Shown here piece by piece: positions 7,641-45,225 of a DNA stretch of 64,000 bases. The notes beneath the pieces are model-generated. The model worked only from the letters and a program-made list of their open reading frames with translations, did not search any database and was not told where the DNA came from. The DNA lies in contig JBAZNT010000001.1 of assembly GCA_041649115.1 (NCBI GenBank), forward strand, positions 76,325 to 140,324. Reading direction: 5' to 3'. Numbering within the stretch: position 1 is the first letter of the stretch; each line of letters opens with the position of its first letter. The translations under genes were made by a program, and so were the position numbers. Source of the DNA: Candidatus Omnitrophota bacterium (GTDB taxonomy: Bacteria > Omnitrophota > Gorgyraeia > Gygaellales > Profunditerraquicolaceae).

Positions 7641-7652
7641 GCGGAGGATTTA

Positions 7653-9239
7653 ATGTATAGGATACTTGTAAGCGACCCCCTTTCCGATAAGGGGTTGAAG
7701 ATTTTAAGAGAAGCCAAGGAATTAGAGGTAGACGTCAAGACCGACCTGAAACCCGAGGCCCTCAAGGGCATCATCAAGGATTACGACGCCTTGATTGTGC
7801 GCAGCGCCACCAAGGTCACGAGTGATATTGTCGAGGCCGCCGCAAGATTAAAGGTTATCGGCCGGGCAGGCGTCGGGTTGGATAATGTTGACCTTGAGGC
7901 AGCGACCCAGAAGGGGATTATCGTAATGAATACCCCGGCGGGCAATACCGTTTCTACCGCCGAACATACCTTTAGCATGATACTTGCGCTATCCAGGAAT
8001 ATCGCCCAGGCTAGCGCCTCCATCAAAAAAGGGGAGTGGAAGCGTTCCAGATTCATCGGGGTGGAGCTTTACGGCAAGACCCTGGGGGTAGTGGGGCTGG
8101 GGCGTATCGGCAGCGAGGTCGCCAGGCATGCCATTTCTTTTGGGATGAAGGTCCTGGCGTATGACCCCTTTCTTTCGCGCGATGTTGCCAAAGCGATGGG
8201 TATCGAGATAGTGGAGTTGGAGGTTTTATTTAAACGGGCGGATTACATCAGCGTGCACACCCCTCTTACGGCGGAGACCACCCATATCATCTCCGGTAAG
8301 GAGTTTTCCCTGATGAAGAAGGGGGTGCGCATCATTAACTGCGCCAGGGGGGGCATTATTGATGAAGAGGCATTGCTTGCCGCCATCAAAGACGGGAAGG
8401 TTGCGGGTGCGGCGCTGGATGTTTTTGAAAAAGAGCCCCCTTCGGCTGATAGCGAGCTGCTAAAACTCGAGAACGTCGTAGCTACCCCGCACCTGGGGGC
8501 CTCTACCGAAGAGGCGCAGGTGAATGTCGCCGTTGAAGTGGCGGAGATCGTACGCGATGCGTTGCTTGGCTGCGGTATACGCAATGCCGCAAATTACCCC
8601 TGCGTCGACGCCGAGGTGTATAAAGTCCTGGAACCCTATGTTAATCTCTCCGAGAAACTCGGTGTTTTTGCCAGCCAGCTGGCGGAAGGCAGATTCCAGG
8701 AAGTAAATATAAATTATAGCGGCGACATCATCCAGTACGATTTAAGCGCCCTGACTATGGCGCTGGTAAAGGGCCTGCTTTCCCCGATATTGAAGGAGAC
8801 GGTAAATTTTATCAATGCCACCAGCCTGGCCGGCGAGCGCGGTATCCTTATCAAGGAATCCAAGTCTTCCAAGGAGGAGGAATTTGTTACCCTTATAAAG
8901 GTGGAGATAAAAACCGATAAAGGCGCGCGCGTAGTAGCAGGTACCCTCTCTTCCAACAAACAGCCGCGTATCGTCAAGATCGACGATTACTACGTTGAGG
9001 CTACCCCGCAGGGGGATATGCTTCTGCTGCAGAACTGGGACCGTCCCGGTATTATCGGGCATCTGGGCACGCTGATGGGCAAGCACAATATCAATATTGC
9101 CGGCATGACCTTCGGACGCGAGAAGCGCAAGGGTAAGGCCATCAGTCTCCTTAACGTTGACAGCCCGGTTTCGGAAGACCTCATCGCTAAGATTAAAAAG
9201 AACGAAGATATTATTTCGGTAAAAACAATCAAACTTTAA
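7653..9239 (+). CDS. serA: D-3-phosphoglycerate dehydrogenase (long form with a C-terminal ACT domain)
   Basis: 528 aa. NAD-binding motif GVVGLGRIGSEVA; the 2-hydroxyacid dehydrogenase catalytic region ..NCARGGIIDE..TPHLGAST; and a C-terminal ASB/ACT-like region. Confidence 0.93.
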   Translation: MYRILVSDPLSDKGLKILREAKELEVDVKTDLKPEALKGIIKDYDALIVRSATKVTSDIVEAAARLKVIGRAGVGLDNVDLEAATQKGIIVMNTPAGNTVSTAEHTFSMILALSRNIAQASASIKKGEWKRSRFIGVELYGKTLGVVGLGRIGSEVARHAISFGMKVLAYDPFLSRDVAKAMGIEIVELEVLFKRADYISVHTPLTAETTHIISGKEFSLMKKGVRIINCARGGIIDEEALLAAIKDGKVAGAALDVFEKEPPSADSELLKLENVVATPHLGASTEEAQVNVAVEVAEIVRDALLGCGIRNAANYPCVDAEVYKVLEPYVNLSEKLGVFASQLAEGRFQEVNINYSGDIIQYDLSALTMALVKGLLSPILKETVNFINATSLAGERGILIKESKSSKEEEFVTLIKVEIKTDKGARVVAGTLSSNKQPRIVKIDDYYVEATPQGDMLLLQNWDRPGIIGHLGTLMGKHNINIAGMTFGREKRKGKAISLLNVDSPVSEDLIAKIKKNEDIISVKTIKL

Positions 9240-9259
9240 GATTGCAAGGGCCTTAGCAA

Positions 9260-10990
9260 GTGAAAGTCCGCATCTTTGCTCTATTGTTTATTTTTCTTGC
9301 CGGCGGTTTAGCAACAGCCCGGGCCGGGGAATTCAACATCCTTTATACCGGCGGTACCCACGCGATGCTATACCCCTGTAATTGTCCTGTTGAGCCCGAC
9401 GGCGGAGTTGCGCGGCGCGCAACCCTCATAAGAGAGCTCAGAAAGAAAAACCCCAATACCCTGGTTTTGGATTCCGGAGATTTCTTCGCCGGCGGACTGC
9501 AGGACGAATATACGCAGAATAGCGAACTTGATATGCGTCGCAGCGCCATTGAGCTGGAGGCCATGGGGATAATGGGTTATGATGCAGCAGGGGTATCCAG
9601 CGAAGAGTTTAATTTCACAAGGGATTTTCTAGAGAAGAGCATCAAGGAGGCAAGGTTTCCTTTTCTCTCGGCTAATATTAAATCCCCGCTCTTTCATCCG
9701 TATATCGTCAAGGAAATAGGCGGCGTGAAATTCGGGATCACCTCTGTTATTACTCCTTTTGCCGCAGCCAAGACCGGGGGATTAGAGTTGCCAGACCCCC
9801 GGGATTCCTTAAGAAAAGTCCTTGGCCGAATGAAGAAGGAAGGCGTTGATATAGTTGTATTATTGAGCCGGTTAGACCAAAAGGAAGACATAAACTTAAT
9901 AAAGGGCCTGGGTGGCGTTGACATTATTATTAACAGTTATAGCAGCAAGAATGACGACATCTTTACTAAGAGCGGCACTACCCTGATTGTAAAGACCTCC
10001 TGGCAGGGAAGGCATTTAGGGAGGTTGATGCTGGATATAGACGCCGACAAGAAAATCGTCAATTATAAGGCAGAGTTCATCAGGCTTTCGGATGAGATTG
10101 CTGATGACCCGGCGATAACTGCGATCCTGCCGCAGTGTTTTTCCGACTCCAATTGCAGAAAAGGAGCAGCGAGGGGGTCTTGTAATAACCCGGCCATGCC
10201 GAATGCGCGATGCGCATTTGCCAAGGCATCCAGGGTCAGCTTATTGGTCATAACTTCAAAGGAATGCACTGTCTGCGATGCGCAGAAAACGATAGATTAT
10301 TTAAAGAATGAATTCCCAGGCCTTAGCGTATCCTATCTCTACCACGGCAGCCGGAAGGCGGATAGGTTGATTGCCGATTTCGGTATCAAGGGTCTGCCGG
10401 CTTATCTGCTGGAGAAAGAGGTAGAAAAGGACCCCAATTTCAGCAAGCTTGCGGATAAGTCCGTTTTAAAGGGGGATTACTACCTTTTGGAGCCCAGATT
10501 CAGCGGTCTGGCCTATTTCTTAGACCGCAGGAGACAAAAGGGCAACATAGATGTCTTTCTTAGTCTTTACGACGCAAGCGCCGTCGGCATCCTGGAAAAT
10601 GTCAGGCAGTATCAACCGGCGCTGCACTTTCTGGTTACCGAGCAAGGGGGAGATTTTAGCGCCCTCAAAGGAAAGCCCGAGGTAGAGGAGTGCCTGCGCA
10701 GCGTCTGCGTCCGGAAATATTACCCCAGGCGATACTGGGATTACCTTAGCTGCCGTGCCGCTAACATCAGCAGCAGCTGGTGGCAGGAATGCGCTTCCGG
10801 CATCGACGCATCCAGGATTGCCGAGTGCGCCAGGGGGCAAGAAGGGAAGGCGCTTTTAAGAGACAATATACGGATGAACAAGGAATTGGAGATTATGTTC
10901 GGACCGCTGTACCTGGTAGATAATAATGAGATTTTTGGAATCCGCGGGGTGCCCAGCAAAGAAGAATTCCGCAGGATTTTCAAAAAATAA
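9260..10990 (+). CDS. Exported multidomain protein: degenerate 5'-nucleotidase/metallophosphoesterase-like N-domain, Cys-rich linker, CxxC thioredoxin-like module and a degenerate DsbA-like module
   Basis: 576 aa with a GTG start and a signal peptide (MKVRIFALLFIFLAGGLATARA). GGVARRAT and DSGDFFAGG resemble 5'-nucleotidase motifs, but the DxH and GNHE positions are altered (YTGGTH, SSEEFN). A C-x5-C-x8-C-x9-C linker follows. ITSKECTVCD plus GLPAYLL indicates a thioredoxin fold. Confidence 0.55.
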   Translation: MKVRIFALLFIFLAGGLATARAGEFNILYTGGTHAMLYPCNCPVEPDGGVARRATLIRELRKKNPNTLVLDSGDFFAGGLQDEYTQNSELDMRRSAIELEAMGIMGYDAAGVSSEEFNFTRDFLEKSIKEARFPFLSANIKSPLFHPYIVKEIGGVKFGITSVITPFAAAKTGGLELPDPRDSLRKVLGRMKKEGVDIVVLLSRLDQKEDINLIKGLGGVDIIINSYSSKNDDIFTKSGTTLIVKTSWQGRHLGRLMLDIDADKKIVNYKAEFIRLSDEIADDPAITAILPQCFSDSNCRKGAARGSCNNPAMPNARCAFAKASRVSLLVITSKECTVCDAQKTIDYLKNEFPGLSVSYLYHGSRKADRLIADFGIKGLPAYLLEKEVEKDPNFSKLADKSVLKGDYYLLEPRFSGLAYFLDRRRQKGNIDVFLSLYDASAVGILENVRQYQPALHFLVTEQGGDFSALKGKPEVEECLRSVCVRKYYPRRYWDYLSCRAANISSSWWQECASGIDASRIAECARGQEGKALLRDNIRMNKELEIMFGPLYLVDNNEIFGIRGVPSKEEFRRIFKK

Positions 10991-11002: not shown

Positions 11003-13517
<2,515 letters not shown>

Positions 13518-13518
13518 A

Positions 13519-13554
13519 GGAAACTCCTTCCAACAGGAATCGGGAAAGTGTTTC
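13519..13554 (+). repeat. Hairpin-repeat family copy after purA
   Basis: GGAAACTCCTTCC-AACAGGAATC-GGGAAAGTGTTTC pairs at 10 of 12 positions. The 3' arm TCGGGAAAGTGT matches the other copies. Confidence 0.6.
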
Positions 13555-13569
13555 GGCATTGAAAATGGC

Positions 13570-13598
13570 TTGACTAAAATTATGGCATATGTTATAGT
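13570..13598 (+). promoter_or_regulatory. Sigma-70-like promoter for the OmpA-like/coiled-coil lipoprotein operon
   Basis: TTGACT (13570-13575), a 17-nt spacer, then TATAGT (13593-13598), about 30 nt upstream of an AGGAGG RBS and the ATG at 13630. Confidence 0.55.
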
Positions 13599-13629
13599 TA
13601 AACCCTATCCTAAAAACAGGAGGTAACAG

Positions 13630-14277
13630 ATGAAAGCGGCATCCGTATTTAAAATCTTACTAATAATATTAATAGTGACGGCCATCTCCGGATGTACTTT
13701 TGTTTTCCAGAAGGGGAGACGTTCGGATATCGAAAAGATAAAGGATCTCTCCAGGCAGCTGGATGAATTGGGACAGACCCAGAGACTCTTGGAGGCGAGG
13801 CTTGCCCAGGAGATCAAGGATAAGCAGGTAAGGCTTCAGATGATGGAGAAGGGGCTGGTAATTACATTTGTGGCGGATGTCCTCTTTGATTCCGGCAAGG
13901 CCAAGATCAAACCGACGGCTTATGCTACCCTTGATAAGGTAGCAACAGTTCTTAAAGAGAATGCCCCCGAATATAATATAGGAATTGAGGGGCATACCGA
14001 CAACGTGCCGATCAGGTTCTCGGGATGGAAGAGTAATTGGGAACTTTCCACTGCCCGCTCATTGAGCGTATTGCACTATCTGGTAGATGACGAGGGTATC
14101 GCCCCCAGCCGGGTATCCGCCATCGGTTACGGCGAATACAGGCCGGTTGCCTCCAATGATAGCGCCGAGGGGCGTCAGCTTAACCGCAGGGTAGAGATTG
14201 TTATCCTGCCCATGGTTTCAAAGGTTAAGGAGACCGCAAAAGAAGAGGGTATTGAGCCCGCGGAGAATCTGAAGTAA
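13630..14277 (+). CDS. OmpA/MotB-family peptidoglycan-binding lipoprotein with an N-terminal coiled coil
   Basis: 215 aa. The lipobox is LIVTAISGC. OmpA-like domain motifs are GHTDNVPI.., NWELSTARS and NRRVEIVI. Confidence 0.8.
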   Translation: MKAASVFKILLIILIVTAISGCTFVFQKGRRSDIEKIKDLSRQLDELGQTQRLLEARLAQEIKDKQVRLQMMEKGLVITFVADVLFDSGKAKIKPTAYATLDKVATVLKENAPEYNIGIEGHTDNVPIRFSGWKSNWELSTARSLSVLHYLVDDEGIAPSRVSAIGYGEYRPVASNDSAEGRQLNRRVEIVILPMVSKVKETAKEEGIEPAENLK

Positions 14278-14307
14278 TAGTATTGTTTTTTAGAGGGGAA
14301 TCAGAAA

Positions 14308-14676
14308 ATGGAAGAAGGAATGAAAAACCGCCTCATTCTTATACTTTCGGTTCTAACGGCAATATTCTTTATTGCGGCCGTAGGCTCCTGCGGCAGCGCG
14401 CGCAGACAGAAGATTGCCAAGGACAAGGAGATGGCCACCCGCCTGGATCTGGAAGAGAACGCCGGCAAGCTCGAGAGCCAGGTAGCTAGCCTCAAGCAGG
14501 AACTGCAGCAGGAGAAAACGGCGCACGAGACTACCCGTAAGGCATTATCGCAAGAGCAGCTTATTAATCAGGACCTGAAGGATGAGTTGGAGAAGGTCAG
14601 CGAGCTCAAGGGGGCGCTGGAGGAAGATTTAAAGGAAGCGCTTATAAAAGGCAAGTCTTCGAAGAGCAAAAGATAG
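14308..14676 (+). CDS. Small lipoprotein, almost entirely coiled coil, with a basic C-terminus (hypothetical)
   Basis: 122 aa. It has a hydrophobic signal and lipobox AAVGSCGS, then about 90 residues of heptad-like E/K/Q/L-rich sequence ending KGKSSKSKR. The start could be 14308 or 14320. Confidence 0.6.
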   Translation: MEEGMKNRLILILSVLTAIFFIAAVGSCGSARRQKIAKDKEMATRLDLEENAGKLESQVASLKQELQQEKTAHETTRKALSQEQLINQDLKDELEKVSELKGALEEDLKEALIKGKSSKSKR

Positions 14677-35183: not shown

Positions 35184-35792
35184 GTGCTTTATTACGAAAA
35201 CAAGCTCCGCAGGGAGGGTTACGATTTTATCATCGGGATAGATGAGGTGGGCAGGGGCTGCCTTGCCGGTCCGGTAGTGGCAGCGGCAGTACTTCTTAAG
35301 GAAACGAGATTCCGCAGCCGCATTGATGATTCCAAGAGATTGACCCCTCTTCAGCGTGAGGCGGCATTTCCGGAGATTGTGGATAAATCCGCGTTCGGCG
35401 TAGGTATCGTAAGCGAGAAGGCGATCGACCGCCTGAATATAGCGGTGGCGACCGGCATTGCAATGGAGAAGGCCGTTTCCATGCTTCTCAAGGGGCTCGG
35501 GCCGTGCAATGAAAAACGTATCTGCCTGATGGTCGACGGCACCGTAAAATTAAAGACGCACCTGCCGTACATCAATATTATCAGGGGAGACTCGAAGTCA
35601 AAAAGTATCGCCTGCGCGTCTATCCTTGCCAAGGTTACCCGCGATAGTATCATGTCTTCTTACGATGTTGTATATCCGCAGTACGGTTTCTGGAAGCATA
35701 AGGGTTACCCTACCCGCTTGCACCGGGTGGCAGTGGAGAGGTTCGGGTTATCCCGGATACACCGGGTGAGTTTCTGCCATGCCGCGAAGTAA
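35184..35792 (+). CDS. rnhB: Ribonuclease HII
   Basis: GIDEVGRGCLAGPVVAAAV and DSKRLTP; GTG start. Confidence 0.93.
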   Translation: MLYYENKLRREGYDFIIGIDEVGRGCLAGPVVAAAVLLKETRFRSRIDDSKRLTPLQREAAFPEIVDKSAFGVGIVSEKAIDRLNIAVATGIAMEKAVSMLLKGLGPCNEKRICLMVDGTVKLKTHLPYINIIRGDSKSKSIACASILAKVTRDSIMSSYDVVYPQYGFWKHKGYPTRLHRVAVERFGLSRIHRVSFCHAAK

Positions 35793-36156
35793 TTTGTCGC
35801 TAGGCAAGAGCGCCGAAGATGAAGCCGTAGATTTTCTCAGCCGCCAGGGATGCCGTATCATCAGGAGGAATTATCGCAACAGGGCAGGCGAGATAGATAT
35901 CATTGCCCGGGATAAGGGCACGGTTTGTTTTGTGGAGGTAAAGAGCAGGCGTTCGTTAAGATACGGGCTGCCGCAGGAGGCGGTTTCCTTGCGTAAGCGC
36001 GAAAGGATAGCGCGGGTAGCCCTGGGTTTTTTAAAGGAAAATAATCTCCTGGATTCCCCGGCGAGGTTCGACGTAGTAACGGTCTTGTGCTTGGGCCGGG
36101 CAAGAGAGATAAAATTAATCCGGGGGGCATTCGAATCGGAGGGAGGGGTTGCCTGA
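35779..36156 (+). CDS. yraN: YraN-family endonuclease (UPF0102)
   Basis: 125 aa. GEIDIIARDKGTVCFVEVKSR, and the conserved rnhB-yraN neighbourhood. Confidence 0.85.
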   Translation: MPRSNLSLGKSAEDEAVDFLSRQGCRIIRRNYRNRAGEIDIIARDKGTVCFVEVKSRRSLRYGLPQEAVSLRKRERIARVALGFLKENNLLDSPARFDVVTVLCLGRAREIKLIRGAFESEGGVA

Positions 36157-36157
36157 T

Positions 36158-36724
36158 ATGGCAGATTACCGTAGCGCCACTTTAATGGAATATCTCGATG
36201 CGCTGGCAGCGAGGGCGTCCGTGCCCGGAGGGGGCTCTGCCGCGGCCCTGGATGCGGCCATGGGGGTTGCGCTTATCAGCATGGTGATTAATTTTACCAT
36301 CGGCAAGCCCCGTTACGCCAGATACGAAAAAGAATTAAAGAAGGCTCTGGAGAAGTCCGAGAAGTTGCGCGAGGAATTTCTGCAACTGGTGGACCTTGAT
36401 GCCGCGGCCTATAAGAGCAGGAGCCTGCGTGATGCGCTGGATGTGCCCTTCATGGTTTGCAGGCTTTGCCTGGAAGGGGCAAAGTTATTGCCCGGCCTTG
36501 TCAAAAATTCTAACCCTAACCTGATAAGCGACGTGGCAGTGGCGGCAGCGTTTCTGGAGTCTGCTTTCTCGGCCGCGTATTTTAACGTCCGGATAAATCT
36601 TAAATCCCTAAACGATAAAAAATTGGATTCCAGGATTAATAAGGAATTGCTTTCCAAGGAGAAGATTCTCAGGAGGATCAGATACCAGACGGAGGAGAAA
36701 GTTGGCAAGATTATTAGAGGGTAA
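36158..36724 (+). CDS. fchA: Cyclodeaminase/cyclohydrolase-family protein (FchA/FtcD C-terminal type; likely methenyl-THF cyclohydrolase)
   Basis: YLDALAARASVPGGGSAAALDAAMGVALISMV is the family signature. I prefer the ATG at 36158, which has better spacing from the GGAGGGAGGGG RBS than the TTG at 36149. Confidence 0.72.
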   Translation: MADYRSATLMEYLDALAARASVPGGGSAAALDAAMGVALISMVINFTIGKPRYARYEKELKKALEKSEKLREEFLQLVDLDAAAYKSRSLRDALDVPFMVCRLCLEGAKLLPGLVKNSNPNLISDVAVAAAFLESAFSAAYFNVRINLKSLNDKKLDSRINKELLSKEKILRRIRYQTEEKVGKIIRG

Positions 36725-37541
36725 GCCTGTCGCAGAGAGGATCAAGGCAGAGATTAAAAAGCAGGTTGGGTCGCTGGCTCGTGCGCCCGTGCTGCTTAGC
36801 GTCCAGGTAGGGGAGGATGCCGGTGCCGCGAGCTACGTAAAGTCCCAGCAGAGGGCTGCAGAGGGCCTCGGCATAGAATACCGTTTTCATAAATTGCCGC
36901 CGGAGATAACGGAAGGGGAGCTTCTGGAGTTTATCGGGCGCATGAATTCCGATAAGTCGCTGGACGGGATAATCGTGCAGATGCCGCTGCCGCCCCATAT
37001 CGATCGCAGTAAAATCAGCCAGGCCATCCTTCCCGAGAAAGACGTAGAGGGGATGCATCCCGAGAATATCGGTAGGATCCTTTTCGGTAAGGCGAGCATC
37101 CTTCCTTGCACTGCCGCGGCAGTAATGGAACTGTTGAAGGAGAGCGGGGTCGACCTTTATGGCAGAGAGGTAGTGGTGGTGGGCCACAGCGAGATTGTCG
37201 GCAAGCCCCTCTCGCTTTTGCTGCTTGATAAATTCGCCACTGTTACGGTCTGCCACATAGGCACCTCCAAGGCCGCAAAGCTACAGGAGCACGTCAGTGC
37301 TGCCGAGATATTAATCGTAGCAGTGGGCAGGGCCGGGCTTATTAAAGGAGAGTGGATTCGCGAAGGCGCCGTTGTCATAGATGTCGGCATAAATAAGGTA
37401 GGGGATAAGATTGTAGGCGACGTGGAATTTCAGGAGGCCCAGAGGCGCGCCGCGTTCATCACGCCTGTCCCCGGCGGGGTAGGGCCTTTAACCGTTACCC
37501 TCCTCATGCGCAACCTCCTTGAGGCAGTGAAGTCAAAATAG
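36702..37541 (+). CDS. folD: Bifunctional 5,10-methylene-THF dehydrogenase / 5,10-methenyl-THF cyclohydrolase
   Basis: YVKSQQRAAEGLGI, GIIVQMPLP, VVVGHSEIVGKPL and TPVPGGVGPLT; TTG start after a GGAGGAG RBS. Confidence 0.93.
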   Translation: MARLLEGKPVAERIKAEIKKQVGSLARAPVLLSVQVGEDAGAASYVKSQQRAAEGLGIEYRFHKLPPEITEGELLEFIGRMNSDKSLDGIIVQMPLPPHIDRSKISQAILPEKDVEGMHPENIGRILFGKASILPCTAAAVMELLKESGVDLYGREVVVVGHSEIVGKPLSLLLLDKFATVTVCHIGTSKAAKLQEHVSAAEILIVAVGRAGLIKGEWIREGAVVIDVGINKVGDKIVGDVEFQEAQRRAAFITPVPGGVGPLTVTLLMRNLLEAVKSK

Positions 37542-37542
37542 G

Positions 37543-37580
37543 ATAGAGACGTTTTTCTCCCCGTTCGGGAAAGTGTCTTC
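37543..37580 (+). repeat. Hairpin-repeat family copy (unit 1 of the folD-metF spacer)
   Basis: ATAGAGACGTTTTTCTCCCCGTTCGGGAAAGTGTCTTC. By position-by-position count it is 31/38 identical to 63537-63574. Confidence 0.75.
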
Positions 37581-37586
37581 AAGAGG

Positions 37587-37629
37587 CAGAAACGCTTTCC
37601 CGAACGGGTGGGAAACTGTTTCTGTTTTT
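37587..37629 (+). terminator. Repeat-derived intrinsic-terminator-like hairpin followed by T5
   Basis: CAGAAACGCTTTCCC (37587-37601) pairs with GGGAAACTGTTTCTG (37610-37624) at 14 of 15 positions, one of them G-U, with an 8-nt loop. TTTTT follows at 37625-37629. Confidence 0.6.
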
Positions 37630-37634
37630 GATCC

Positions 37635-37647
37635 GGAAAGCGTTTCT
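37635..37647 (+). repeat. Isolated 3'-arm copy that is the perfect reverse complement of 37588-37600
   Basis: GGAAAGCGTTTCT is the exact reverse complement of AGAAACGCTTTCC. It ends 7 nt before the metF ATG. Confidence 0.7.
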
Positions 37648-37654
37648 TTAAACT

Positions 37655-38527
37655 ATGGCCAGCTTTAAAGAGAAATTAGCATCGGAGAAGTTTCTGGTAA
37701 CTTCCGAGATCGGCCCTCCCAAGGGCATCGGGACAAAGACCCTCCTGGAGGACGCCGAGCTTATCCGCGGGAGGGTGGATGCCATTAATGTGACGGACCT
37801 GCAGAGCTCGGTGATGCGCCTGGGTTCCCTGGCAGTCTGCGCTCTTTTAAAACAGAGGGGATTTGAACCTTTATTCCAGCTAACCTGCCGTGACCGTAAC
37901 CGCCTTGCCTTGCAGTCCGATATACTTTCCGCTGCCGCCCTCGGCATTAAAAATCTCCTGATACTTACCGGTGACCATCCTAGCCTCGGAGACCATCCGG
38001 AGGCCAAGCCGGTGTTTGACCTGGATTCGGTGCAGCTTCTGGAGGCAGTCGGGAAGTTAGAGCAAGGCTTGGATATGAAAGGCAACAGGCTGGAGGGAGA
38101 AGCTCCGGAATTCTGCGTCGGAGCGGCGGTTAATCCCGGGGCAGACCCGTTAGAGCCCGAGATCCTAAAAATGGAAAAGAAGATTGACGCGGGGGCGGAG
38201 TTTTTCCAGACGCAGGCTGCCTACGATATAAAGATTTTTGAAAAATTCCTTGATAAAACCCGGCACCTTAATGTCCCGGTGCTGGCAGGTATCGTGCTTT
38301 TAAAGTCCGCCGCCATGGCGCGCTACATGAACGAGAATGTAGCAGGTATATGCGTACCGGAAGACCTGATCAAACAGATGTATGAGGCCAAGGACAAGAC
38401 GGCAACCTCCATAGGGATTGCCAGCCGTCTGATTAAGGAATTCAAATCCATGTGCCGGGGGGTCCACATTATGCCTATCGGATGGGAAAAAAAAGTTCCC
38501 CTCGTCCTGGACGCCTCAGGTTTATAG
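37655..38527 (+). CDS. metF: Methylenetetrahydrofolate reductase (acetogen/MetF type)
   Basis: 290 aa. FLVTSEIGPPKG, INVTDLQSSVMR, CRDRNRLALQSD and TGDHP. Confidence 0.85.
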   Translation: MASFKEKLASEKFLVTSEIGPPKGIGTKTLLEDAELIRGRVDAINVTDLQSSVMRLGSLAVCALLKQRGFEPLFQLTCRDRNRLALQSDILSAAALGIKNLLILTGDHPSLGDHPEAKPVFDLDSVQLLEAVGKLEQGLDMKGNRLEGEAPEFCVGAAVNPGADPLEPEILKMEKKIDAGAEFFQTQAAYDIKIFEKFLDKTRHLNVPVLAGIVLLKSAAMARYMNENVAGICVPEDLIKQMYEAKDKTATSIGIASRLIKEFKSMCRGVHIMPIGWEKKVPLVLDASGL

Positions 38528-38529
38528 AT

Positions 38530-39447
38530 ATGGCTGAGATTGTGATAGTCGGCAATTCTGCCGCAGGATTTTCATGTTGCCAGGCGCTACTTGCAGAGCG
38601 CGGCAACAACGGGATAACCGTTATCAGCGAAGAGGGTTTTCCTGCCTACAACCGTAACCTCCTTATCGGTTATTTTAGCGGAGGCATAAAGGAAGAAGAA
38701 CTCTTTCTCTGTCGCCAGGACTATTACCAGGCTAACGATGTAAGACTGCTTAAAGAGGGCAGGGTGGTTTTGCTCGAGGCCAGAAAACAGCGGCTCATCC
38801 TCAAGGATAATTCCAGGATAAATTATGATTATCTGGTGATTGCCTCAGGCTCAAGGCCGCGCCTCCCCGATATACCGGGGATCACCAAGGAGGGGGTTGA
38901 GGTTTTTTATTCGCTGGGAGATGTCAGGAGCATTAAGCAACGCCTGATCATCTCCGATACGGTAGCATTGTTCGGAGGGTCCATGCTTTGCGCTGAACTT
39001 TCCGTTTCGGAGTCCCTCAAGGGTAAGGAAGTCAAGATTATTGCCAGGGGCAGGCCCGGGGCGTTTAGCGCCAGCGAGACCCGGGAATGGCTGGAAGGGG
39101 TCGAGGTTGCCGAGGTTATCGGCGAAGGCTCTGAATTGCGGGCGATAAAATTAAGCAACGGTAAGGCAATCGGCGTATCTTTGCTGATCTATGCCGGGCC
39201 GCAACTTGCGGCAAGCGAATTCTTGAAAGGCAGCGATGTCAGCACCGACAATGGTTCTATCCTGGTAGATGGGCAGATGCGCACGAACCTCCGGAATGTT
39301 TTTGCATGCGGCAGCGTTTCTAAAAAAGACAATTACGCCCCGCAATCCAAAACCTGGGATGATTCCGTAAAAGAAGGCATCCTGGCAGCCGAGAGCTTAT
39401 TAAGAATCCTTAAAGGAGAAAGCAATATATGTCAACAGACGTCTTAG
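38530..39447 (+). CDS. Truncated, divergent FAD-dependent pyridine-nucleotide-disulfide-oxidoreductase-family protein (NirB/rubredoxin-reductase-like N-terminal two domains)
   Basis: The ATG at 38530 gives MAEIVIVGNSAAGFSCCQALL, followed by YNRNLL and YDYLVIASGSRPRLPDIPG. The second dinucleotide motif is degenerate (FGGSMLCAEL) and the usual GD motif reads ACGSVS. At about 305 aa it has no dimerisation domain. It overlaps acsB by 19 nt. Confidence 0.65.
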   Translation: MAEIVIVGNSAAGFSCCQALLAERGNNGITVISEEGFPAYNRNLLIGYFSGGIKEEELFLCRQDYYQANDVRLLKEGRVVLLEARKQRLILKDNSRINYDYLVIASGSRPRLPDIPGITKEGVEVFYSLGDVRSIKQRLIISDTVALFGGSMLCAELSVSESLKGKEVKIIARGRPGAFSASETREWLEGVEVAEVIGEGSELRAIKLSNGKAIGVSLLIYAGPQLAASEFLKGSDVSTDNGSILVDGQMRTNLRNVFACGSVSKKDNYAPQSKTWDDSVKEGILAAESLLRILKGESNICQQTS

Positions 39448-41615
39448 TCGAACTTGGCAGCAAGGGGGCAGGCAGCATCATTAAAGCCGCGGGTTCTGCC
39501 CTGGATAAAGCAGCTAAAGAGAAAGGGGAATCCTGCGCTATCGGTTTCGGGGGCACCAATTATTATTTGCCGTTGGCATACGCCCTCTTAAGTATTGAGG
39601 CCAGAAGTCTCGGGGACTGCCGGAATATCCTCAGGGAAGCCGAAGCCCTCAATAATAACCACTCAGCTTCCAGCGGTCTTAATATTACCTGCCTCGGAGG
39701 CATATTGAATAAAGGCGTTGCCGCCTTGCTCTGCGAGGAGGTGCTGGCTGCGCTGGCCTATCTTGATAAAGAGCACCCCGGGGAGGGTTCCGCAGGTTTC
39801 CTGCCGGATACCCTGTTAAGGTCGCTGGGCATCCAGTTGGTTGACGGCAGGATTGCCGGTATCGCGGTAATACTGGGGCCTGCTAAGGATGCGGATGGAG
39901 CGGTGCGCATCGTCAGGGATTTCCAGAGCAAAGGCATCGTAAGCATTCTCGTCGGCAACACAGGCGCAAACAGTTTTAAGAAACAACTGGAAGACAAAAA
40001 GGTAGAGATGGGGCTGGAAAATTATATCGTTGCGTTAGGTGACGATTACCTTTCCGCCATCTATGCCGTTAACTGGGCTGTGCGCGCCCCGCTCGTGTAC
40101 GGAGGCCTGAAGAGCGGGCAGTGGCAGGAAATTTTAAAATACAGCCAGGAGAAAATCCCGGCCTTTGTGATGCTGCTTACTCACGTGGATGAGGTATTGG
40201 TGGCTACAGGCCTCGGGGCATTGGCAATGGGGTTTCCCATTATCTCCGACTTGGATATCCCCCAGCTTGGCAAGATAGACACTACTTTATATGAAGCTGT
40301 TGTTAGCGAAAAGGATTACGGCAGGCTGCCTGCCAGGTGCATTGAGACAAGAGGGCTGAAGGTAAGGGTTGCCGAGGTTCCCATACCCGTGCCTTACGCC
40401 CCGGCATTCGAAGGGGAGCGCGTAAGAAAGGAACAGCTGCATGCGGAGTTCGGCAGCAAGAGCACCGTTGCCTTCGAATACCTGACCTTGAAGGGGATGG
40501 ATGAGGTCGAAGACGCCAGGGTAGAATTGAAAGGGCCGGATATCGACCAATTGCCGAAAGGCATGAAATCCCTGCCGTTGGCGATAATCGTAGAAGTAGC
40601 CGGCCGCAGGATGCAGAAAGATTTTGAGCCTATCCTGGAACGCCAGATACACCGCTTTATGAATTATGCCATGGGCGTGATGCACGTCGGCCAGCGCGAC
40701 ATGAACTGGATACGCGTTTCGCGCGATACGTTTGAGAAGGGATTCCGCCTCAAGCATTTCGGAGTCATAATCCATTCCATGCTGCACCAGGAATACAGCG
40801 CTATCGTGGAGAAGGTACAGGTAAAACTTTATACCCGGGAGGAAGACGTCAAGCTGCTCCTGCCGCAGGCCAAGAGGGCCTACGAGGAGCGCGATGAACG
40901 CATTGCCGGCATGGTGGATGAGAGCGTAGATACATTTTACTCCTGCCTGCTCTGCCAATCCTTTGCCCCGAACCACGTCTGCATTATTACTCCGGAGCGC
41001 CTGGGGCTATGCGGTGCTTATTCCTGGCTGGATGCCAAGGCTTCTTTTGAGATTGTTCCCACCGGTCCGAACCAGCCCATTAAAAAGGGGGAGGTCTCAG
41101 ACGGCAACCTGGGGCAATGGAAGAATATAAACGATTTTGTTTATAATAAATCCAATAAGACCATCCAGAAGGTTAATATGTATTCCCTGATTGATTCTCC
41201 TCAGTCTTCCTGCGGTTGTTTTGAGTGTATTGCGGCGATTGTCCCGGAGGTAAACGGTATAATGGTGGTGCACCGTGATTATACCGGCCTGACGCCGGTA
41301 GGCATGAGTTTTACCACCCTGGCGGGTTCGGTAGGCGGGGGGGTGCAGACCCCGGGTTTTCTGGGGATAGGCAAATTATATATTGTCAGCCGTAAATTTA
41401 TCTCTGCTGACGGAGGATTAAAGAGGCTGGTATGGATGCCGCGGGAACTAAAAGAGATATTGGCGGATAAGCTTAAGAAGCGCGCCGAGGAACTTAAAGA
41501 ACCGGACCTTCTTGACAAGATTGCGGATGAAACTACCGCCGGCACTGTTGCAGAGTTGATTGATTTTTTGCAAAAAGTCAAACACCCTGTACTTGGTATG
41601 CCCGCCCTCCTATAG
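39429..41615 (+). CDS. acsB: Acetyl-CoA synthase catalytic subunit (bacterial AcsB; A-cluster protein of CODH/ACS)
   Basis: 728 aa. FYSCLLCQSFAPNHVCIITPERLGLCGAYSWLDAKASFEI and the A-cluster Cys-Gly-Cys motif SSCGCFECIAAIVPE are present. It is collinear with my recollection of Moorella AcsB, which is about 729 aa. Confidence 0.93.
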   Translation: MSTDVLVELGSKGAGSIIKAAGSALDKAAKEKGESCAIGFGGTNYYLPLAYALLSIEARSLGDCRNILREAEALNNNHSASSGLNITCLGGILNKGVAALLCEEVLAALAYLDKEHPGEGSAGFLPDTLLRSLGIQLVDGRIAGIAVILGPAKDADGAVRIVRDFQSKGIVSILVGNTGANSFKKQLEDKKVEMGLENYIVALGDDYLSAIYAVNWAVRAPLVYGGLKSGQWQEILKYSQEKIPAFVMLLTHVDEVLVATGLGALAMGFPIISDLDIPQLGKIDTTLYEAVVSEKDYGRLPARCIETRGLKVRVAEVPIPVPYAPAFEGERVRKEQLHAEFGSKSTVAFEYLTLKGMDEVEDARVELKGPDIDQLPKGMKSLPLAIIVEVAGRRMQKDFEPILERQIHRFMNYAMGVMHVGQRDMNWIRVSRDTFEKGFRLKHFGVIIHSMLHQEYSAIVEKVQVKLYTREEDVKLLLPQAKRAYEERDERIAGMVDESVDTFYSCLLCQSFAPNHVCIITPERLGLCGAYSWLDAKASFEIVPTGPNQPIKKGEVSDGNLGQWKNINDFVYNKSNKTIQKVNMYSLIDSPQSSCGCFECIAAIVPEVNGIMVVHRDYTGLTPVGMSFTTLAGSVGGGVQTPGFLGIGKLYIVSRKFISADGGLKRLVWMPRELKEILADKLKKRAEELKEPDLLDKIADETTAGTVAELIDFLQKVKHPVLGMPALL

Positions 41616-41689: not shown

Positions 41690-41718
41690 TTGACCTTTTT
41701 TGGCTTTTCTTATATAGT
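41690..41718 (+). promoter_or_regulatory. Sigma-70-like promoter for the TPR gene
   Basis: TTGACC (41690-41695), a 17-nt spacer, then TATAGT (41713-41718), 20 nt upstream of the ATG at 41738. Confidence 0.5.
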
Positions 41719-41737: not shown

Positions 41738-42610
41738 ATGTCAAAATATCCTCCTAAACCTTTCCCCTTTTATAGCATTATAATAGGAGCGTTGTTTTTG
41801 TTTTTAACGGCGAATTCTGGCGCTGCTCAGGAAGAGAAACTCTCTTTAATACAGAACGAGGCCAGGCTTTACCGCGAGTTGGGATTGGAGTCTCAGAATA
41901 AAGGCGAGCTTCAGGAGGCCCTGGTGTATTACGAAAAGGCCATTGTAATGGATCCTCAATACCCGTTGACCTATAATGATGCCGGTGTTGTCCTGGAAGG
42001 GATGGAGCGCCCGGATTTAGCAAAGACAATGTACCTTAAGGCTATCGAGGTAGCGCCGAATTACCCCGACAGCTATTCAAATCTGGCAATCATTTACGAA
42101 AATGAAGGTAATTACGCCGATGCCGTAACCTGCTGGATGAAACGGGCTACGCTAGGCCCTCCTAACGACCCTTGGGCAGAGGCTGCCCGCCGCAGGATAG
42201 GGGACATCGCCAAGGCGTACCCCCAGGCCTACGGCCTAAGCAGCCAGCAATACCAGCAGGGGGAGCGCAGGCTCAGCGCTGAAGCGGAGGAAATCCCGTT
42301 TTCCTATGAGGCAGAGGCGCCGTCTTCCCAATCGGCGTTGACTTATCTAAAACCGCAATATCCTTTGCCCGAACAGCCGGCGGTAGCATACCAGGATTTT
42401 CCTGCTTCCCAGGGCGTTGCCAGGGCAGGCGGCTCCAGCGGTGGAAATAAAACCCGCGCTTCCAATTACCTTATGCAGGCCAGGGAGAATTTCGATGCAG
42501 GTAGCTATGTAGTAGCTTTGAAAGAAGCAACGGTCGCGGAGTATCTGGACCCCGAAAATTCCGAAATCAGTTCTTTTGTGGAAGAGATCCGTAAAAAACT
42601 TTTAAATTAG
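41738..42610 (+). CDS. Secreted or membrane-anchored tetratricopeptide-repeat protein
   Basis: It has an N-terminal hydrophobic segment (FYSIIIGALFLFLTANSGAAQ) and at least three TPR units (EALVYYEKAIVMDPQYP.., MYLKAIEVAPNYP.., ADAVTCWMKRA). I moved the start from the track's TTG at 41690, which is the -35 hexamer, to ATG 41738. Confidence 0.78.
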   Translation: MSKYPPKPFPFYSIIIGALFLFLTANSGAAQEEKLSLIQNEARLYRELGLESQNKGELQEALVYYEKAIVMDPQYPLTYNDAGVVLEGMERPDLAKTMYLKAIEVAPNYPDSYSNLAIIYENEGNYADAVTCWMKRATLGPPNDPWAEAARRRIGDIAKAYPQAYGLSSQQYQQGERRLSAEAEEIPFSYEAEAPSSQSALTYLKPQYPLPEQPAVAYQDFPASQGVARAGGSSGGNKTRASNYLMQARENFDAGSYVVALKEATVAEYLDPENSEISSFVEEIRKKLLN

Positions 42611-42684: not shown

Positions 42685-45225
42685 ATGGCTAAAGAAAGAT
42701 TATTTTTACTTGATGCTACAGCTTTTTGCTATCGCGCCTTCTACGCTATCGGAGGCCTGTCTACCTCATCGGGTCAGCCTACCAACGCGGTTTACGGTTT
42801 CGCCAATATGCTTAAGAAGATTATTAAAGATAGGCACCCTGATTTTATCGCTGCTTGTTTTGACGTATCCCGCGATACGTTTCGCCAGAAGAAATTTGCC
42901 GCTTATAAGATACATCGTCCCCCGATGCCTGAAGGCCTATCTTCCCAGATGCCGTTTATCAGGCAGCTGGTGAGCGGTTACGGCATAGCGGTTTTTGAAA
43001 AAGAGGGTTACGAGGCAGACGACATCATTGCGACTATCGCTGCCAGGGCGAAGGAGGAGGGGCTGAAGGTAACCGTCGTTAGCTCCGATAAGGACATACT
43101 GCAGTTGGTGGATGAGGATACCGAGGTATTTAATCCCTACAAGGATAACGGTATTACCTACGATGCAGAGAAGGTCAGGGGGGCTTTTGGGGTAAGCCCT
43201 TCCCAGATCCCGGATCTCATTGCCTTAATGGGAGACGAGGCGGATAACATCCCTGGCATCAGTGGCGTAGGAGAGAAGACTGCGAAGGCACTTATTAAAG
43301 AATTCGGTTCTCTTGAGTCCGTGCTGGCGCACGCCAACCGTATCATCCCCAAGAAGGTTTCAGGCGCCATTGAGGCTAATATGCGTACCGCCACTCTTAA
43401 TAAGGAATTGGCTGTTTTGGATAGCAGGGTGAAGTTGGATTTTAGCCTTGATATGCTGCGCCCCGGACCCCTAGATACCGAGGGGCTCCTGGACTTATTT
43501 AAAAAGCTGGAGTTTAAGAAGTTCAGCAGGGAGCTTCAGGTAGAAGCAGGGGATTCAGTTGCGAAGGAGCTGCCGGTTGGAGGCGATAGCGACCTGGAGC
43601 AGATTATCAGCAGGCGCCTTGAGGTTATTTTAGGATTTAGCGAAGACGCGGGAATATTTTTATCTGCCGCAGGCAGGGGCTTCCGCCTGGCTGCCATTAC
43701 TGCGAAGGCAAGGGAGATGCTTTCGCGCAGCGATATCCCCAAGACCGGTCACGACCTTAAAAGGATTAAGGTAATGCTGCAGAAGAATGGGGTAATCCTC
43801 GCAGGGCTGTATTTTGACACCATGATCGCGGCTTATCTTATTAATCCCGGTAAGGGTTCCTATGCGCTGGAGGATCTCTCCTGGGACTATCTGTCTCAAA
43901 CTCCCTTGAGCAGGGGTATCGATAATGCCGGCGCCCTGACGGCAATCGCTGACCTTAAACCTCTCTTGGAAGCCGAGCTTAAGAAAAGGTCCCTCCTGGA
44001 GCTTTTCCGCAGCATTGAGATGCCGTTGGTGGAGGTGCTGGCGGAAATGGAGACAACGGGGATAAAATTGAACACGATGATCCTGGAGGACCTTTCCAAA
44101 GAACTGGAGAGGAGGCTTATCATCCTAATCCAGGATATATATAAGCTAAGCGGCGCGGAATTCAATATCAATTCCCCAAAACAATTGCGGACCATCATTT
44201 TTGAAAAGCTTGGGCTGCCGGTGGTAAAGAGGACCAAAACCGGCCCTTCTACCGATGAGGAGGTATTAAAGGCCCTGGCCTCTTCTCACGAGCTTCCGGC
44301 GCTGCTTTTAGAATACCGCCAACTTACCAAGTTAAAGAATACCTATGTCGATACCCTGCCCGCCCTGGTTGACCCGAAAACCGGCAGGATTCATACCTCA
44401 TTTAATCAGACCGGTACCGAGACCGGCAGGTTAAGCAGCAGCAACCCTAACCTGCAGAATATACCTACCAGGACCGATATCGGCAGCAGGATCAGGCAGG
44501 CGATCGTGGCCTTTGATTCCGAGAGCTATCTTTTGGCGTGCGACTATTCGCAAATCGAATTAAGAATACTGGCGCACATATCCGGCGACGAGAACCTGAT
44601 CTCGGAATTCAGGCAGGATAAAGACGTGCACCGGGCTACCGCCGCGCTCATCTACGGCCTAGGCGAAACCGAGGTTAGCGACCAGATGCGCGATACCGCC
44701 AAGAGGGTTAATTTCGGTATCATCTACGGCCTGACCTCATATGGTCTTTCTCGCGACCTCTCTATATCATTTGATGAGGCGCAGGATTTTATCGATACCT
44801 ATCTAGCCAAATACCCCCGGGTTAAAGATTATATGCGGGAGCAGATTTCCAGGGCAGAGGATGACGGATTTGTTACCACTATCAGCGGCAGGAGGAGGTA
44901 TATACCGGAAATTAAGGATAAGAATCAGGCAGTACGCCAGTTTGCACAGCGCAAGGCCATCAATACCCCCATCCAGGGCTCGGCAAGCGATTTGATAAAG
45001 GCGGCCATGATTGCGATAGAGCGGAACATAAATGGAAAGGGGATGGCCAGCCGCATGATAATGCAGGTCCACGATGAATTGGTTTTTAACGTACCCCGCC
45101 GGGAGTTTGATGCCGCTATGGGGTTAATCCGGAGCGCGATGGAGCACGTCATAGAGTTAAGCGTCCCGGTAAAGGTTACTGTTAAAAAAGGAGATAATTG
45201 GCTGGATATGGTATCTGTCAACTAA
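42685..45225 (+). CDS. polA: DNA polymerase I (5' nuclease plus polymerase; the 3'-5' exonuclease motifs appear degenerate)
   Basis: 846 aa. The 5'-nuclease region is LLDATAFCYRAFYA..GYEADD. Polymerase motifs are DYSQIELRILAH, RRxAKxxNFGIIYG and QVHDEL. Confidence 0.95.
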   Translation: MAKERLFLLDATAFCYRAFYAIGGLSTSSGQPTNAVYGFANMLKKIIKDRHPDFIAACFDVSRDTFRQKKFAAYKIHRPPMPEGLSSQMPFIRQLVSGYGIAVFEKEGYEADDIIATIAARAKEEGLKVTVVSSDKDILQLVDEDTEVFNPYKDNGITYDAEKVRGAFGVSPSQIPDLIALMGDEADNIPGISGVGEKTAKALIKEFGSLESVLAHANRIIPKKVSGAIEANMRTATLNKELAVLDSRVKLDFSLDMLRPGPLDTEGLLDLFKKLEFKKFSRELQVEAGDSVAKELPVGGDSDLEQIISRRLEVILGFSEDAGIFLSAAGRGFRLAAITAKAREMLSRSDIPKTGHDLKRIKVMLQKNGVILAGLYFDTMIAAYLINPGKGSYALEDLSWDYLSQTPLSRGIDNAGALTAIADLKPLLEAELKKRSLLELFRSIEMPLVEVLAEMETTGIKLNTMILEDLSKELERRLIILIQDIYKLSGAEFNINSPKQLRTIIFEKLGLPVVKRTKTGPSTDEEVLKALASSHELPALLLEYRQLTKLKNTYVDTLPALVDPKTGRIHTSFNQTGTETGRLSSSNPNLQNIPTRTDIGSRIRQAIVAFDSESYLLACDYSQIELRILAHISGDENLISEFRQDKDVHRATAALIYGLGETEVSDQMRDTAKRVNFGIIYGLTSYGLSRDLSISFDEAQDFIDTYLAKYPRVKDYMREQISRAEDDGFVTTISGRRRYIPEIKDKNQAVRQFAQRKAINTPIQGSASDLIKAAMIAIERNINGKGMASRMIMQVHDELVFNVPRREFDAAMGLIRSAMEHVIELSVPVKVTVKKGDNWLDMVSVN

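Follow-up and report, generated by a model that had tools for sequence, protein, structure and literature searches.

An acsB operon of Omnitrophota without CO dehydrogenase genes, very probably the reduced form of a vertically inherited Wood-Ljungdahl operon

To our knowledge, Dehalococcoides is the only studied case of an acetyl-CoA synthase (ACS, whose A-cluster subunit is AcsB) without a CO dehydrogenase (CODH) partner. In Dehalococcoides mccartyi, acetyl-CoA is cleaved without CODH and CO is released, according to PMC6113397, which cites Zhuang 2014. Clostridium-type acetogens carry all Wood-Ljungdahl pathway (WLP) genes in one cluster, with the flavoprotein gene lpdA after metF (PMC5039349), and CooS-CooF-FNOR is a recognized putative functional unit that is biochemically uncharacterized (PMC6344411). 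For the Omnitrophota, a partial WLP lacking both CODH and formate dehydrogenase (FDH) is already published: Seymour et al. (2023; PMC10066038) report 24 species without AcsA/CooS and FDH that keep AcsB-E, the closed genome of Velamenicoccus archaeovorus among them. Here, we examine a 64,000-nucleotide stretch of DNA from a Candidatus Omnitrophota bacterium (contig JBAZNT010000001.1, positions 76,325 to 140,324; hereafter the window), in which an fchA-like gene, folD, metF, a flavoprotein gene, and acsB follow one another at 36158-41615. Because an operon bearing cooS occupies the identical slot in sister lineages, this locus very probably derives by reduction from a Wood-Ljungdahl operon that the Omnitrophota inherited vertically, and would have lost fhs, cooS, and cooF.

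The central observation is a fuller form of the operon. A metagenome scan with Omnitrophota Fhs, the formate-tetrahydrofolate (THF) ligase, turned up a contig (L092) with cooS and a cooF-like gene after metF, and its CooS as a query gave at least 120 matches, all at least 83% identical and many of them from named Omnitrophota. All four CooS contexts that were inspected (L170, L171, L172, and L173, from different samples) read UPF0102-fhs-fchA-folD-metF-cooS-cooF-FNOR-acsB-TPR-polA, where TPR stands for a tetratricopeptide repeat gene, and the operon lies in the identical housekeeping slot, with trmD-rplS-rnhB-UPF0102 on one side and TPR-polA-glgA-coaE-rho on the other. Its CooS has 634 aa; its FNOR has 421 aa and combines Pyr_redox_2, Pyr_redox (the NAD domain, PF00070), and Rubredoxin_C, and the FNOR gene overlaps acsB as the flavoprotein gene of the window does. 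Proteins shared between the window and L171 are 79% (MetF), 72% (FolD), 62% (FchA), and 60-62% (AcsB) identical. In the AcsB phylogeny that the original prediction, made from the letters of the window alone, had proposed as a check (neighbor-joining, rooted with Acetoanaerobium, with short internal branches), four CooS-linked sequences of other metagenome contigs, assumed to represent other phyla, are the first to diverge; the Omnitrophota AcsB are monophyletic, and all 82 reduced loci have the four full-operon, CODH-linked sequences as their sister group. A parsimonious reading suggests a single loss of cooS-cooF, followed by decay of FNOR and repeated loss of fhs. L170 has an insertion between cooF and FNOR (12717-14577, equal to 15058-16918 of L092), made up of a small membrane open reading frame (ORF), a second, short copy of the FNOR N-terminus that carries GNSAAG, the toxin-antitoxin pair RelB/ParE, and a gene that resembles pilin genes.

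The gene content of the window agrees with such a loss. The gene-content evidence, which covers ~84 kb of the window's genome, comes from annotating all long ORFs of the window and of the next 10 kb downstream with Pfam, and from a second absence test by tblastn with CooS, CooC, MetV, AcsD, AcsC, AcsE, and Fhs from the Acetoanaerobium WLP cluster. CooS, CooC, AcsC/D/E, Fhs, and MetV were found neither in the 64-kb window (tblastn and Pfam) nor in the 10 kb past its end (Pfam), and neither FDH nor formate-THF ligase occurs in the ~84 kb covered. The original prediction had likewise listed no CODH, corrinoid Fe-S protein, methyltransferase, Fhs, or MetV within 64 kb, and its five gene calls proved correct by Pfam and NCBIfam; beyond what it had noted, the layout is not an oddity of one genome and is conserved across ~80 species. 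Among GTDB species representatives, we retrieved 80 loci at 64-81% AcsB identity, the best match to the window being 81%, so that the MAG of the window is not itself one of these representatives, and ORF clustering gave in nearly all of them the order queA-tgt-trmD-rplS-rnhB-UPF0102-(fhs)-fchA-folD-metF-(flavoprotein)-acsB-TPR-polA-glgA-coaE-rho-prfA-prmC-aroA. CooS, CooC, and AcsC/D/E gave no tblastn match within 10 kb of acsB in any of the 80, MetV had none in the window or in any locus, and AcsC/D/E are more than 10 kb from acsB in the full-operon relatives as well. A 564-aa formate-THF ligase gene fills the slot in 22 of the 60 scorable species and is missing in 38; the window and the representative closest to it (L009) both have an empty slot, and a tblastn search with Fhs matched 27 loci and not the window. 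Named relatives among the fetched loci belong to the class Velamenicoccia, the order Gygaellales, and the family Profunditerraquicolaceae. The AcsB of the window has the same sequence as NCBI MFA4983801.1, which is encoded on a 221-kb contig of a Candidatus Omnitrophota metagenome-assembled genome (MAG), and the same protein is found in ENA ERZ27247363 and in JGI; its 120 closest homologs are 68-95% identical and nearly all from Omnitrophota where the source names them.

Some individual loci deserve mention. A lone fhs in the sample from which the window comes (L093, Ga0265297_10000941, 8001-9689) is 64% identical to Omnitrophota Fhs and has no folate or acs neighbor; it was rejected as the missing fhs of the window, as its tetranucleotide correlation with the window is 0.73 against 0.96-0.98 within the window, which indicates a different organism. 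In L086 (JBLMZF010000058.1, 80-1452), hgcA (352 aa, with the cap-helix NVWCAAGK and a transmembrane domain) and hgcB (a 105-aa ferredoxin) lie directly upstream of metF-flavoprotein-acsB, so that a corrinoid methyl-transfer protein is here joined to the reduced operon; an AcsC-like match in this locus was rejected because it is HgcA itself. L086 is labeled Deltaproteobacteria, and its AcsB groups inside the Omnitrophota clade. Another AcsB homolog from Omnitrophota (P0044, 1256 aa) contains an intein with the Pfam domains LAGLIDADG_3 and Intein_splicing.

AcsB keeps its A-cluster. The protein has the domains CODH_A_N (PF18537), CdhC (PF03598), and ACS_CODH_B_C (PF19436) and matches the C. autoethanogenum ACS (6YTT) with 675 bits; the strong AcsB call of the original prediction stands, with both Cys motifs that it quoted present and a score well above the curated cut-off (Table 1). 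C506, C509, C518, C528, C595, G596, and C597 are invariant in 17 homologs, and all A-cluster ligands are intact. The change is concentrated in the N-terminal domain, the conservation of which had also been proposed for checking. Between the reduced and the full clade, identity is 45% in the N-terminal, 74% in the middle, and 79% in the C-terminal domain. The full clade compared with classical CODH-linked AcsB gives 53%, 51%, and 60%, and the reduced clade compared with classical sequences 40%, 49%, and 60%; identity within the full clade is 85%, 79%, and 81%, and within the reduced clade 68%, 73%, and 78%. The N-terminal domain is thus the most conserved domain of AcsB in the full clade and the least conserved in the reduced one, where it is still constrained (dN/dS 0.04-0.10). 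CODH-linked AcsB share 226 conserved positions; the reduced clade has lost 15, of which 14 are in the N-terminal domain, and all eight fixed replacements (A44N, I106L, L171V, A221P, F224Y, G251S, A262L, and I265L) lie there. By these alignments, the CODH-docking domain of AcsB is remodeled after the loss of cooS-cooF. One of the eight concerns the CO alcove, for which the M. thermoacetica set is G145, I146, V149, F229, and F512: F512 and the G-I-x-x-I segment are kept, and F229 is replaced by Tyr. This Tyr occurs in 107 of 115 close homologs (~93%) and in 75 of 79 loci, and every CODH-linked AcsB examined has Phe. In M. thermoacetica, F229A lowers CO affinity 30-fold and abolishes autotrophy, while F229W raises CO affinity 80-fold (PMC11321310). 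We also considered A221P and A262L as counterparts of the CO-tunnel residues A222 and A265 of M. thermoacetica and rejected this, as the mapping (window + 5) puts A222 at window A217, which is kept.

The sequence of the flavoprotein identifies it as a decayed FNOR of the CooS-CooF-FNOR unit. It is 30% identical over 290 residues to the FNOR in the same slot of L171 (E 3e-46, 151 bits), and a search of 5.8 billion proteins returned an Omnitrophota-only family of 59 members (168-625 bits), followed by generic Pyr_redox_2 proteins at no more than 88 bits. The original prediction had correctly called a flavoprotein, but did not recognize a decayed CooF-associated FNOR, which is the key clue to the history of the operon. 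The unusual FAD motif GNSAAG is common to the flavoprotein and full-length FNOR, and IASG is also kept in the flavoprotein. Three changes mark the whole family: the NAD motif GxGxxG is gone (FGGSMLC in the window) and 14 residues after it are deleted, the FAD "GD" reads "GS," and there is no C-terminal (Rubredoxin_C) domain; neither PF00070 nor PF18267 matches the 305-aa protein of the window. Neither cooS nor cooF lies beside the flavoprotein gene of the window, and both are present in L170-L173. An AlphaFold2 (AF2) model (pLDDT 92.8) shows a core of two domains as in NADH oxidases and ferredoxin/rubredoxin reductases; TM-scores are ~0.8 on the query and ~0.6 on longer targets. The flavoprotein is not a pseudogene and is under purifying selection: dN/dS is 0.13-0.24 where it is free and 0.10-0.16 where it forms the short extension described below, against mostly 0.04-0.08 for MetF and AcsB (AcsB 0.05-0.08; one MetF pair 0.16). 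Two other identities were rejected: a clostridial LpdA orthologue, suggested by the position after metF (BLASTP E 0.002, no dimerization domain), and a CoA-disulfide reductase (weak matches, active-site Cys context missing, and a far better match to FNOR). Across the 80 loci, the flavoprotein is a free protein of ~290-330 aa in 40, is fused to the N-terminus of AcsB in four (1027-1029 aa in total), and in the remaining 36 is cut to a 115-143-aa N-terminal extension of AcsB that aligns solely to the flavoprotein middle domain; the 120 closest AcsB homologs include five fused and 28 middle-domain-only forms. In L088 (JBFWKV010000049.1), which has the most basal AcsB of the reduced clade (728 aa), acsB comes directly after metF and the flavoprotein remnant is absent, so the remnant can be lost completely. 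Where it persists, it is probably a selected accessory protein that is translationally coupled to AcsB and not NAD(P)H-dependent.

A reduced operon with a CODH-free AcsB is the best overall explanation of these observations, and we consider it reasonably probable; that the window's genome holds no CODH partner anywhere is, in our view, quite likely. Under this explanation, cooS and cooF would have been deleted in the lineage of the window, after which FNOR would have shed the NAD(P)H site, the GD motif, and the C-terminal domain and, in relatives, have been fused to AcsB or trimmed to the middle domain; fhs would also have left the slot, in the window and in ~60% of related species. AcsB would stay a working A-cluster enzyme that no longer docks CODH and exchanges free CO. 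With a corrinoid Fe-S protein and a methyltransferase encoded elsewhere, as reported for relatives, it could interconvert acetyl-CoA and methyl-THF plus free CO, and MetF, FolD, and FchA would tie this methyl to the pools of methylene-, methenyl-, and formyl-THF. By analogy with Dehalococcoides, the reaction may run toward cleavage of acetyl-CoA to supply C1 units with CO as a by-product, to which we give at best an even chance, the alternative being net acetogenesis; the lean toward cleavage comes from the lack of a CO2 or formate route at the locus, as the slot has neither cooS nor fhs and the literature reports FDH as absent from WLP-bearing Omnitrophota generally. Several points weigh against this explanation. 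The genes cooS, fhs, or FDH may lie elsewhere in the MAG, and AcsC/D/E and the Ni-insertion factor (AcsF/CooC) are putative. The one-loss scenario is what parsimony suggests on a neighbor-joining tree with short internal branches, and the full-operon loci were sampled through a single CooS query, with all CooS at least 83% identical. MetF is present, unlike in Dehalococcoides, so methyl-THF could be derived from serine, which weakens the rationale of C1 supply. Finally, most of the CO alcove is retained and the exchange of Phe for Tyr is conservative, which the uptake of CO proposed by Seymour et al. fits equally well.

The pathway could instead be scattered but complete, with CODH (cooS/acsA), fhs, and perhaps FDH at other loci, in which case the operon would be only rearranged and the organism would run a normal CO2-fixing or acetogenic WLP. 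The location of AcsC/D/E away from acsB in every Omnitrophota locus seen, full-operon ones included, shows that scattering is normal in the phylum, and to this extent the original prediction of unusually scattered acs genes stands. The ~84 kb of genome covered, the retention of the AcsB N-terminal domain under purifying selection, and the lone fhs outside the slot in the sample of the window point the same way, although the last comes from another organism by its tetranucleotide composition. For CODH, however, the prediction's other option, an incomplete or repurposed pathway, is favored over mere scattering: synteny shows cooS-cooF and fhs deleted from the operon, all four CooS contexts inspected sit in the slot, the docking domain has diverged specifically in the reduced clade, FNOR has decayed with loss of its NAD site, as expected once its CooS-CooF partners are gone, and Seymour et al. 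(PMC10066038) count 24 species, including one with a closed genome, that have neither AcsA nor CooS. As weak negative evidence, none of the best 120 Omnitrophota CooS matches sits on a contig equal in length to the contig of the window or to any AcsB contig of the reduced clade. We therefore regard a scattered complete pathway as unlikely. A stronger competitor, though still a doubtful one, is synthesis by CO scavenging, in which AcsB and AcsCDE would make acetyl-CoA from environmental CO and a methyl group (from formate via Fhs where present, or from serine/glycine), yielding acetate, ATP, and an electron sink. Seymour et al. propose this for CooS-less Omnitrophota. The retained alcove, with one aromatic residue replacing another at Phe229, fits it, and since F229W raises CO affinity 80-fold, Tyr at this position could adapt the enzyme to scarce free CO. 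That a costly metalloenzyme is kept under strong purifying selection in streamlined genomes suggests that its role is central, and serine-synthesis genes lie nearby. However, the slot lacks fhs in the window and in ~60% of reduced-clade species, so that the formate entry point was repeatedly dispensable; the model would depend on both CO and a C1 donor, each an external or indirect input; ambient CO is normally at trace levels; and no CO-related transporter or sensor was seen in the locus.

The role of the flavoprotein is a matter of its own. It could be a working redox partner, binding FAD and passing electrons to MetF, in place of the missing MetV/NADH site, or serving the reductive activation of the AcsB A-cluster. 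Its ORF is intact in more than 40 species with dN/dS of 0.13-0.24, the AF2 fold is confidently that of a flavoprotein reductase, the FAD-side motifs GNSAAG and IASG are kept, the gene is placed between metF (2-nt gap) and acsB (19-nt overlap), and the MetF is of the MetVF type with no MetV. Set against this are the absent NAD(P)H motif GxGxxG with its 14-residue deletion, the replacement of the FAD "GD" aspartate in all members, the absence of the C-terminal domain that docks ferredoxin/rubredoxin, and a fusion partner that is always AcsB and never MetF. Furthermore, 28 of the 120 closest homologs lack both FAD-binding segments and keep only the middle domain fused to AcsB, so a flavin-dependent role cannot be general, and we find a redox partner improbable. 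The boldest combination of these elements is possible, and we hold it only tentatively, as something that would more probably fail than stand: a CODH-free acetyl-CoA synthase in at least 80 species of ultra-small, possibly host-dependent bacteria, in which the remodeled N-terminal domain of AcsB would have taken on, as a structural subunit or domain, a catalytically dead remnant of FNOR, the NAD(P)H-linked electron module of the CODH, and the CO alcove would have been retuned (Phe229 to Tyr) for free CO exchange. The enzyme would then act mainly as an acetyl-CoA decarbonylase feeding the folate C1 pool and leaking CO to partners or hosts, and the sister operon would be an undescribed CODH/ACS wired to NAD(P)H via CooF-FNOR.

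The genes of the locus (Table 1) are closely packed: folD overlaps fchA by 23 nt, and the flavoprotein gene starts 2 nt past the metF stop and overlaps acsB by 19 nt. The fchA-like protein scores 133 bits against the NCBIfam FchA equivalog, below the cut-off of 275. The methyl-branch genes FolD/FchA and MetF of KEGG module M00377 are present in the window, and the MetF, 49% identical to the MetV-linked MetF of Acetoanaerobium, is by similarity of the MetVF (acetogen) type, without metV. A promoter-like match lies at 41690-41718, upstream of the TPR gene. The rest of the window and the 10 kb downstream contain only housekeeping genes by Pfam, almost all on the + strand.

Table 1. Coordinates of the features of the window locus (positions in the window) and of the full-operon loci (positions in each locus).
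Feature	Position	Strand	Evidence or remark
UPF0102 (YraN-like) gene	35779..36156	+	PF02021; upstream border of operon slot; directly upstream of operon in ~60 loci
Empty fhs slot	36154..36160	+	UPF0102 stop TGA, 1 nt, then fchA ATG
fchA-like methenyl-THF cyclohydrolase, 188 aa	36158..36724	+	FTCD_C PF04961, E 2.9e-47
folD methylene-THF dehydrogenase/cyclohydrolase, 279 aa	36702..37541	+	PF00763 + PF02882, both domains
metF methylene-THF reductase, 290 aa	37655..38527	+	PF02219 (MTHFR), E 8.6e-36
Flavoprotein (identified by sequence as FNOR remnant), 305 aa	38530..39447	+	Pyr_redox_2, E 1.6e-29
acsB acetyl-CoA synthase (A-cluster subunit), 728 aa	39429..41615	+	NF040764 963 bits, curated cut-off 800
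AcsB N-terminal domain, aa 1-312	39429..40364	+	CODH docking and CO tunnel in classical enzymes
Tyr224 codon (= M. thermoacetica Phe229, CO-alcove wall next to Ni_p)	40098..40100	+	Residue mapping and PMC11321310 mutagenesis primers
Cys506, Cys509, Cys518, Cys528 ([4Fe-4S] ligands of A-cluster) and Phe512	40944..41012	+	
Cys595-Gly596-Cys597 (Ni-Ni site of A-cluster)	41211..41219	+	
TPR protein gene, downstream border	41798..42610	+	Conserved synteny, outside pathway
polA	42685-45225		After TPR gene, conserved synteny
cooS-cooF-FNOR before and overlapping acsB, L170	10001-18094		
cooS-cooF-FNOR before and overlapping acsB, L171	10001-15847		1.19-Mb contig
cooS-cooF-FNOR before and overlapping acsB, L172	9001-14783		QZM4-1-77, GCA_023819035.1
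cooS-cooF-FNOR before and overlapping acsB, L173	9001-15193		

Farther upstream, at 6504-9239, the window has a serC-like gene for a class-V aminotransferase and a serA gene for a full-length 3-phosphoglycerate dehydrogenase, so serine, and hence C1 units derived from it through GlyA, can probably be made, which bears on why an ACS route to C1 is kept. Between serA and a homocitrate/isopropylmalate-synthase-like gene lies a 576-aa ORF (9260-10990) with no Pfam match at E 1e-5. Practically all genes of the window (1-64000) are on the + strand and GC skew is positive in 32 of 32 two-kb bins, which places the window wholly on one leading strand.

In the literature searched, we did not find the conserved operon, its full cooS-cooF-FNOR-acsB form, the domain-specific remodeling of AcsB, or the alcove substitution, nor the series of reduction from full FNOR to free remnant, to fused form, to middle domain only; the WLP is not discussed in a preprint of 2026 that deals with complete genomes of Omnitrophota. 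The locus thus adds a large natural clade of CODH-less acetyl-CoA synthases, for which we offer as signatures the remodeling of the N-terminal domain, the eight fixed substitutions including Phe229 to Tyr, and the retained FNOR-derived domain. As fhs is often missing from the operon, caution is warranted against calling Omnitrophota acetogens from the completeness of KEGG modules. In the sister lineages, the position of cooS-cooF-FNOR just before acsB, which it overlaps, suggests a CODH/ACS wired to NAD(P)H via CooF and the flavoprotein, and these lineages point to a possible NAD(P)H-linked enzyme composed of CooS, CooF, FNOR, and AcsB.

One of the known systems closest to the window is the partial WLP of the Velamenicoccus archaeovorus type (PMC10066038), with which it shares the phylum, AcsB with a methyl branch, and, in the ~84 kb covered, the lack of AcsA/CooS and FDH. 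The Profunditerraquicolaceae (UBA6253, UBA6233, RBG_13_41_10, and Undivivens industriae among our loci) are one of the CooS-less groups in that paper. It is a KEGG presence/absence survey, however, in the available text of which we found no account of the operon, of its cooS-cooF-FNOR form in the same slot, of a remnant of FNOR or its fusion to AcsB, of the N-domain remodeling, or of Phe229 to Tyr, and it calls the methyl branch complete including Fhs, whereas in the window fhs is missing from the operon. Like D. mccartyi as described in PMC6113397, the window has AcsB without CODH (here at the level of the locus) and a proposed cleavage of acetyl-CoA to the C1 pool, the Omnitrophota case being known from genes alone. 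D. mccartyi is without MetF, whereas metF is present and strongly conserved here, and phylum and gene layout differ. In Acetoanaerobium noterae, of the Clostridium type, the cluster reads cooS-cooC-fhs-fchA-metV-metF-lpdA-cooC-acsD-acsC-acsE-acsB. As in the window, the methyl branch, a Pyr_redox_2 flavoprotein, and acsB lie on one strand, and MetF is 49% identical; the window differs in having no cooC-acsD-acsC-acsE and no metV, and its flavoprotein matches LpdA only at E 0.002. The joining of acsB to the methyl branch, which the original prediction took as a departure from acetogens, is not without precedent, as Clostridium-type single clusters join both (PMC5039349). The flavoprotein of the window is homologous to the FNOR of the CooS-CooF-FNOR unit (Whitham 2015; Geelhoed 2016; Inoue 2019, PMC6344411) and stands in the same position, but cooS and cooF are absent and the NAD site and C-terminal domain are lost; in the literature searched, we did not find this unit described as attached to acsB. 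Another close system is the full Omnitrophota operon of L170-L173, which has the same flanks and gene order as the window but with fhs, cooS, cooF, and a 421-aa FNOR, and whose AcsB has a classical-like N-terminal domain and Phe at the alcove position. Since this sister clade has CODH in the same operon, the two states of the enzyme can be compared residue by residue.

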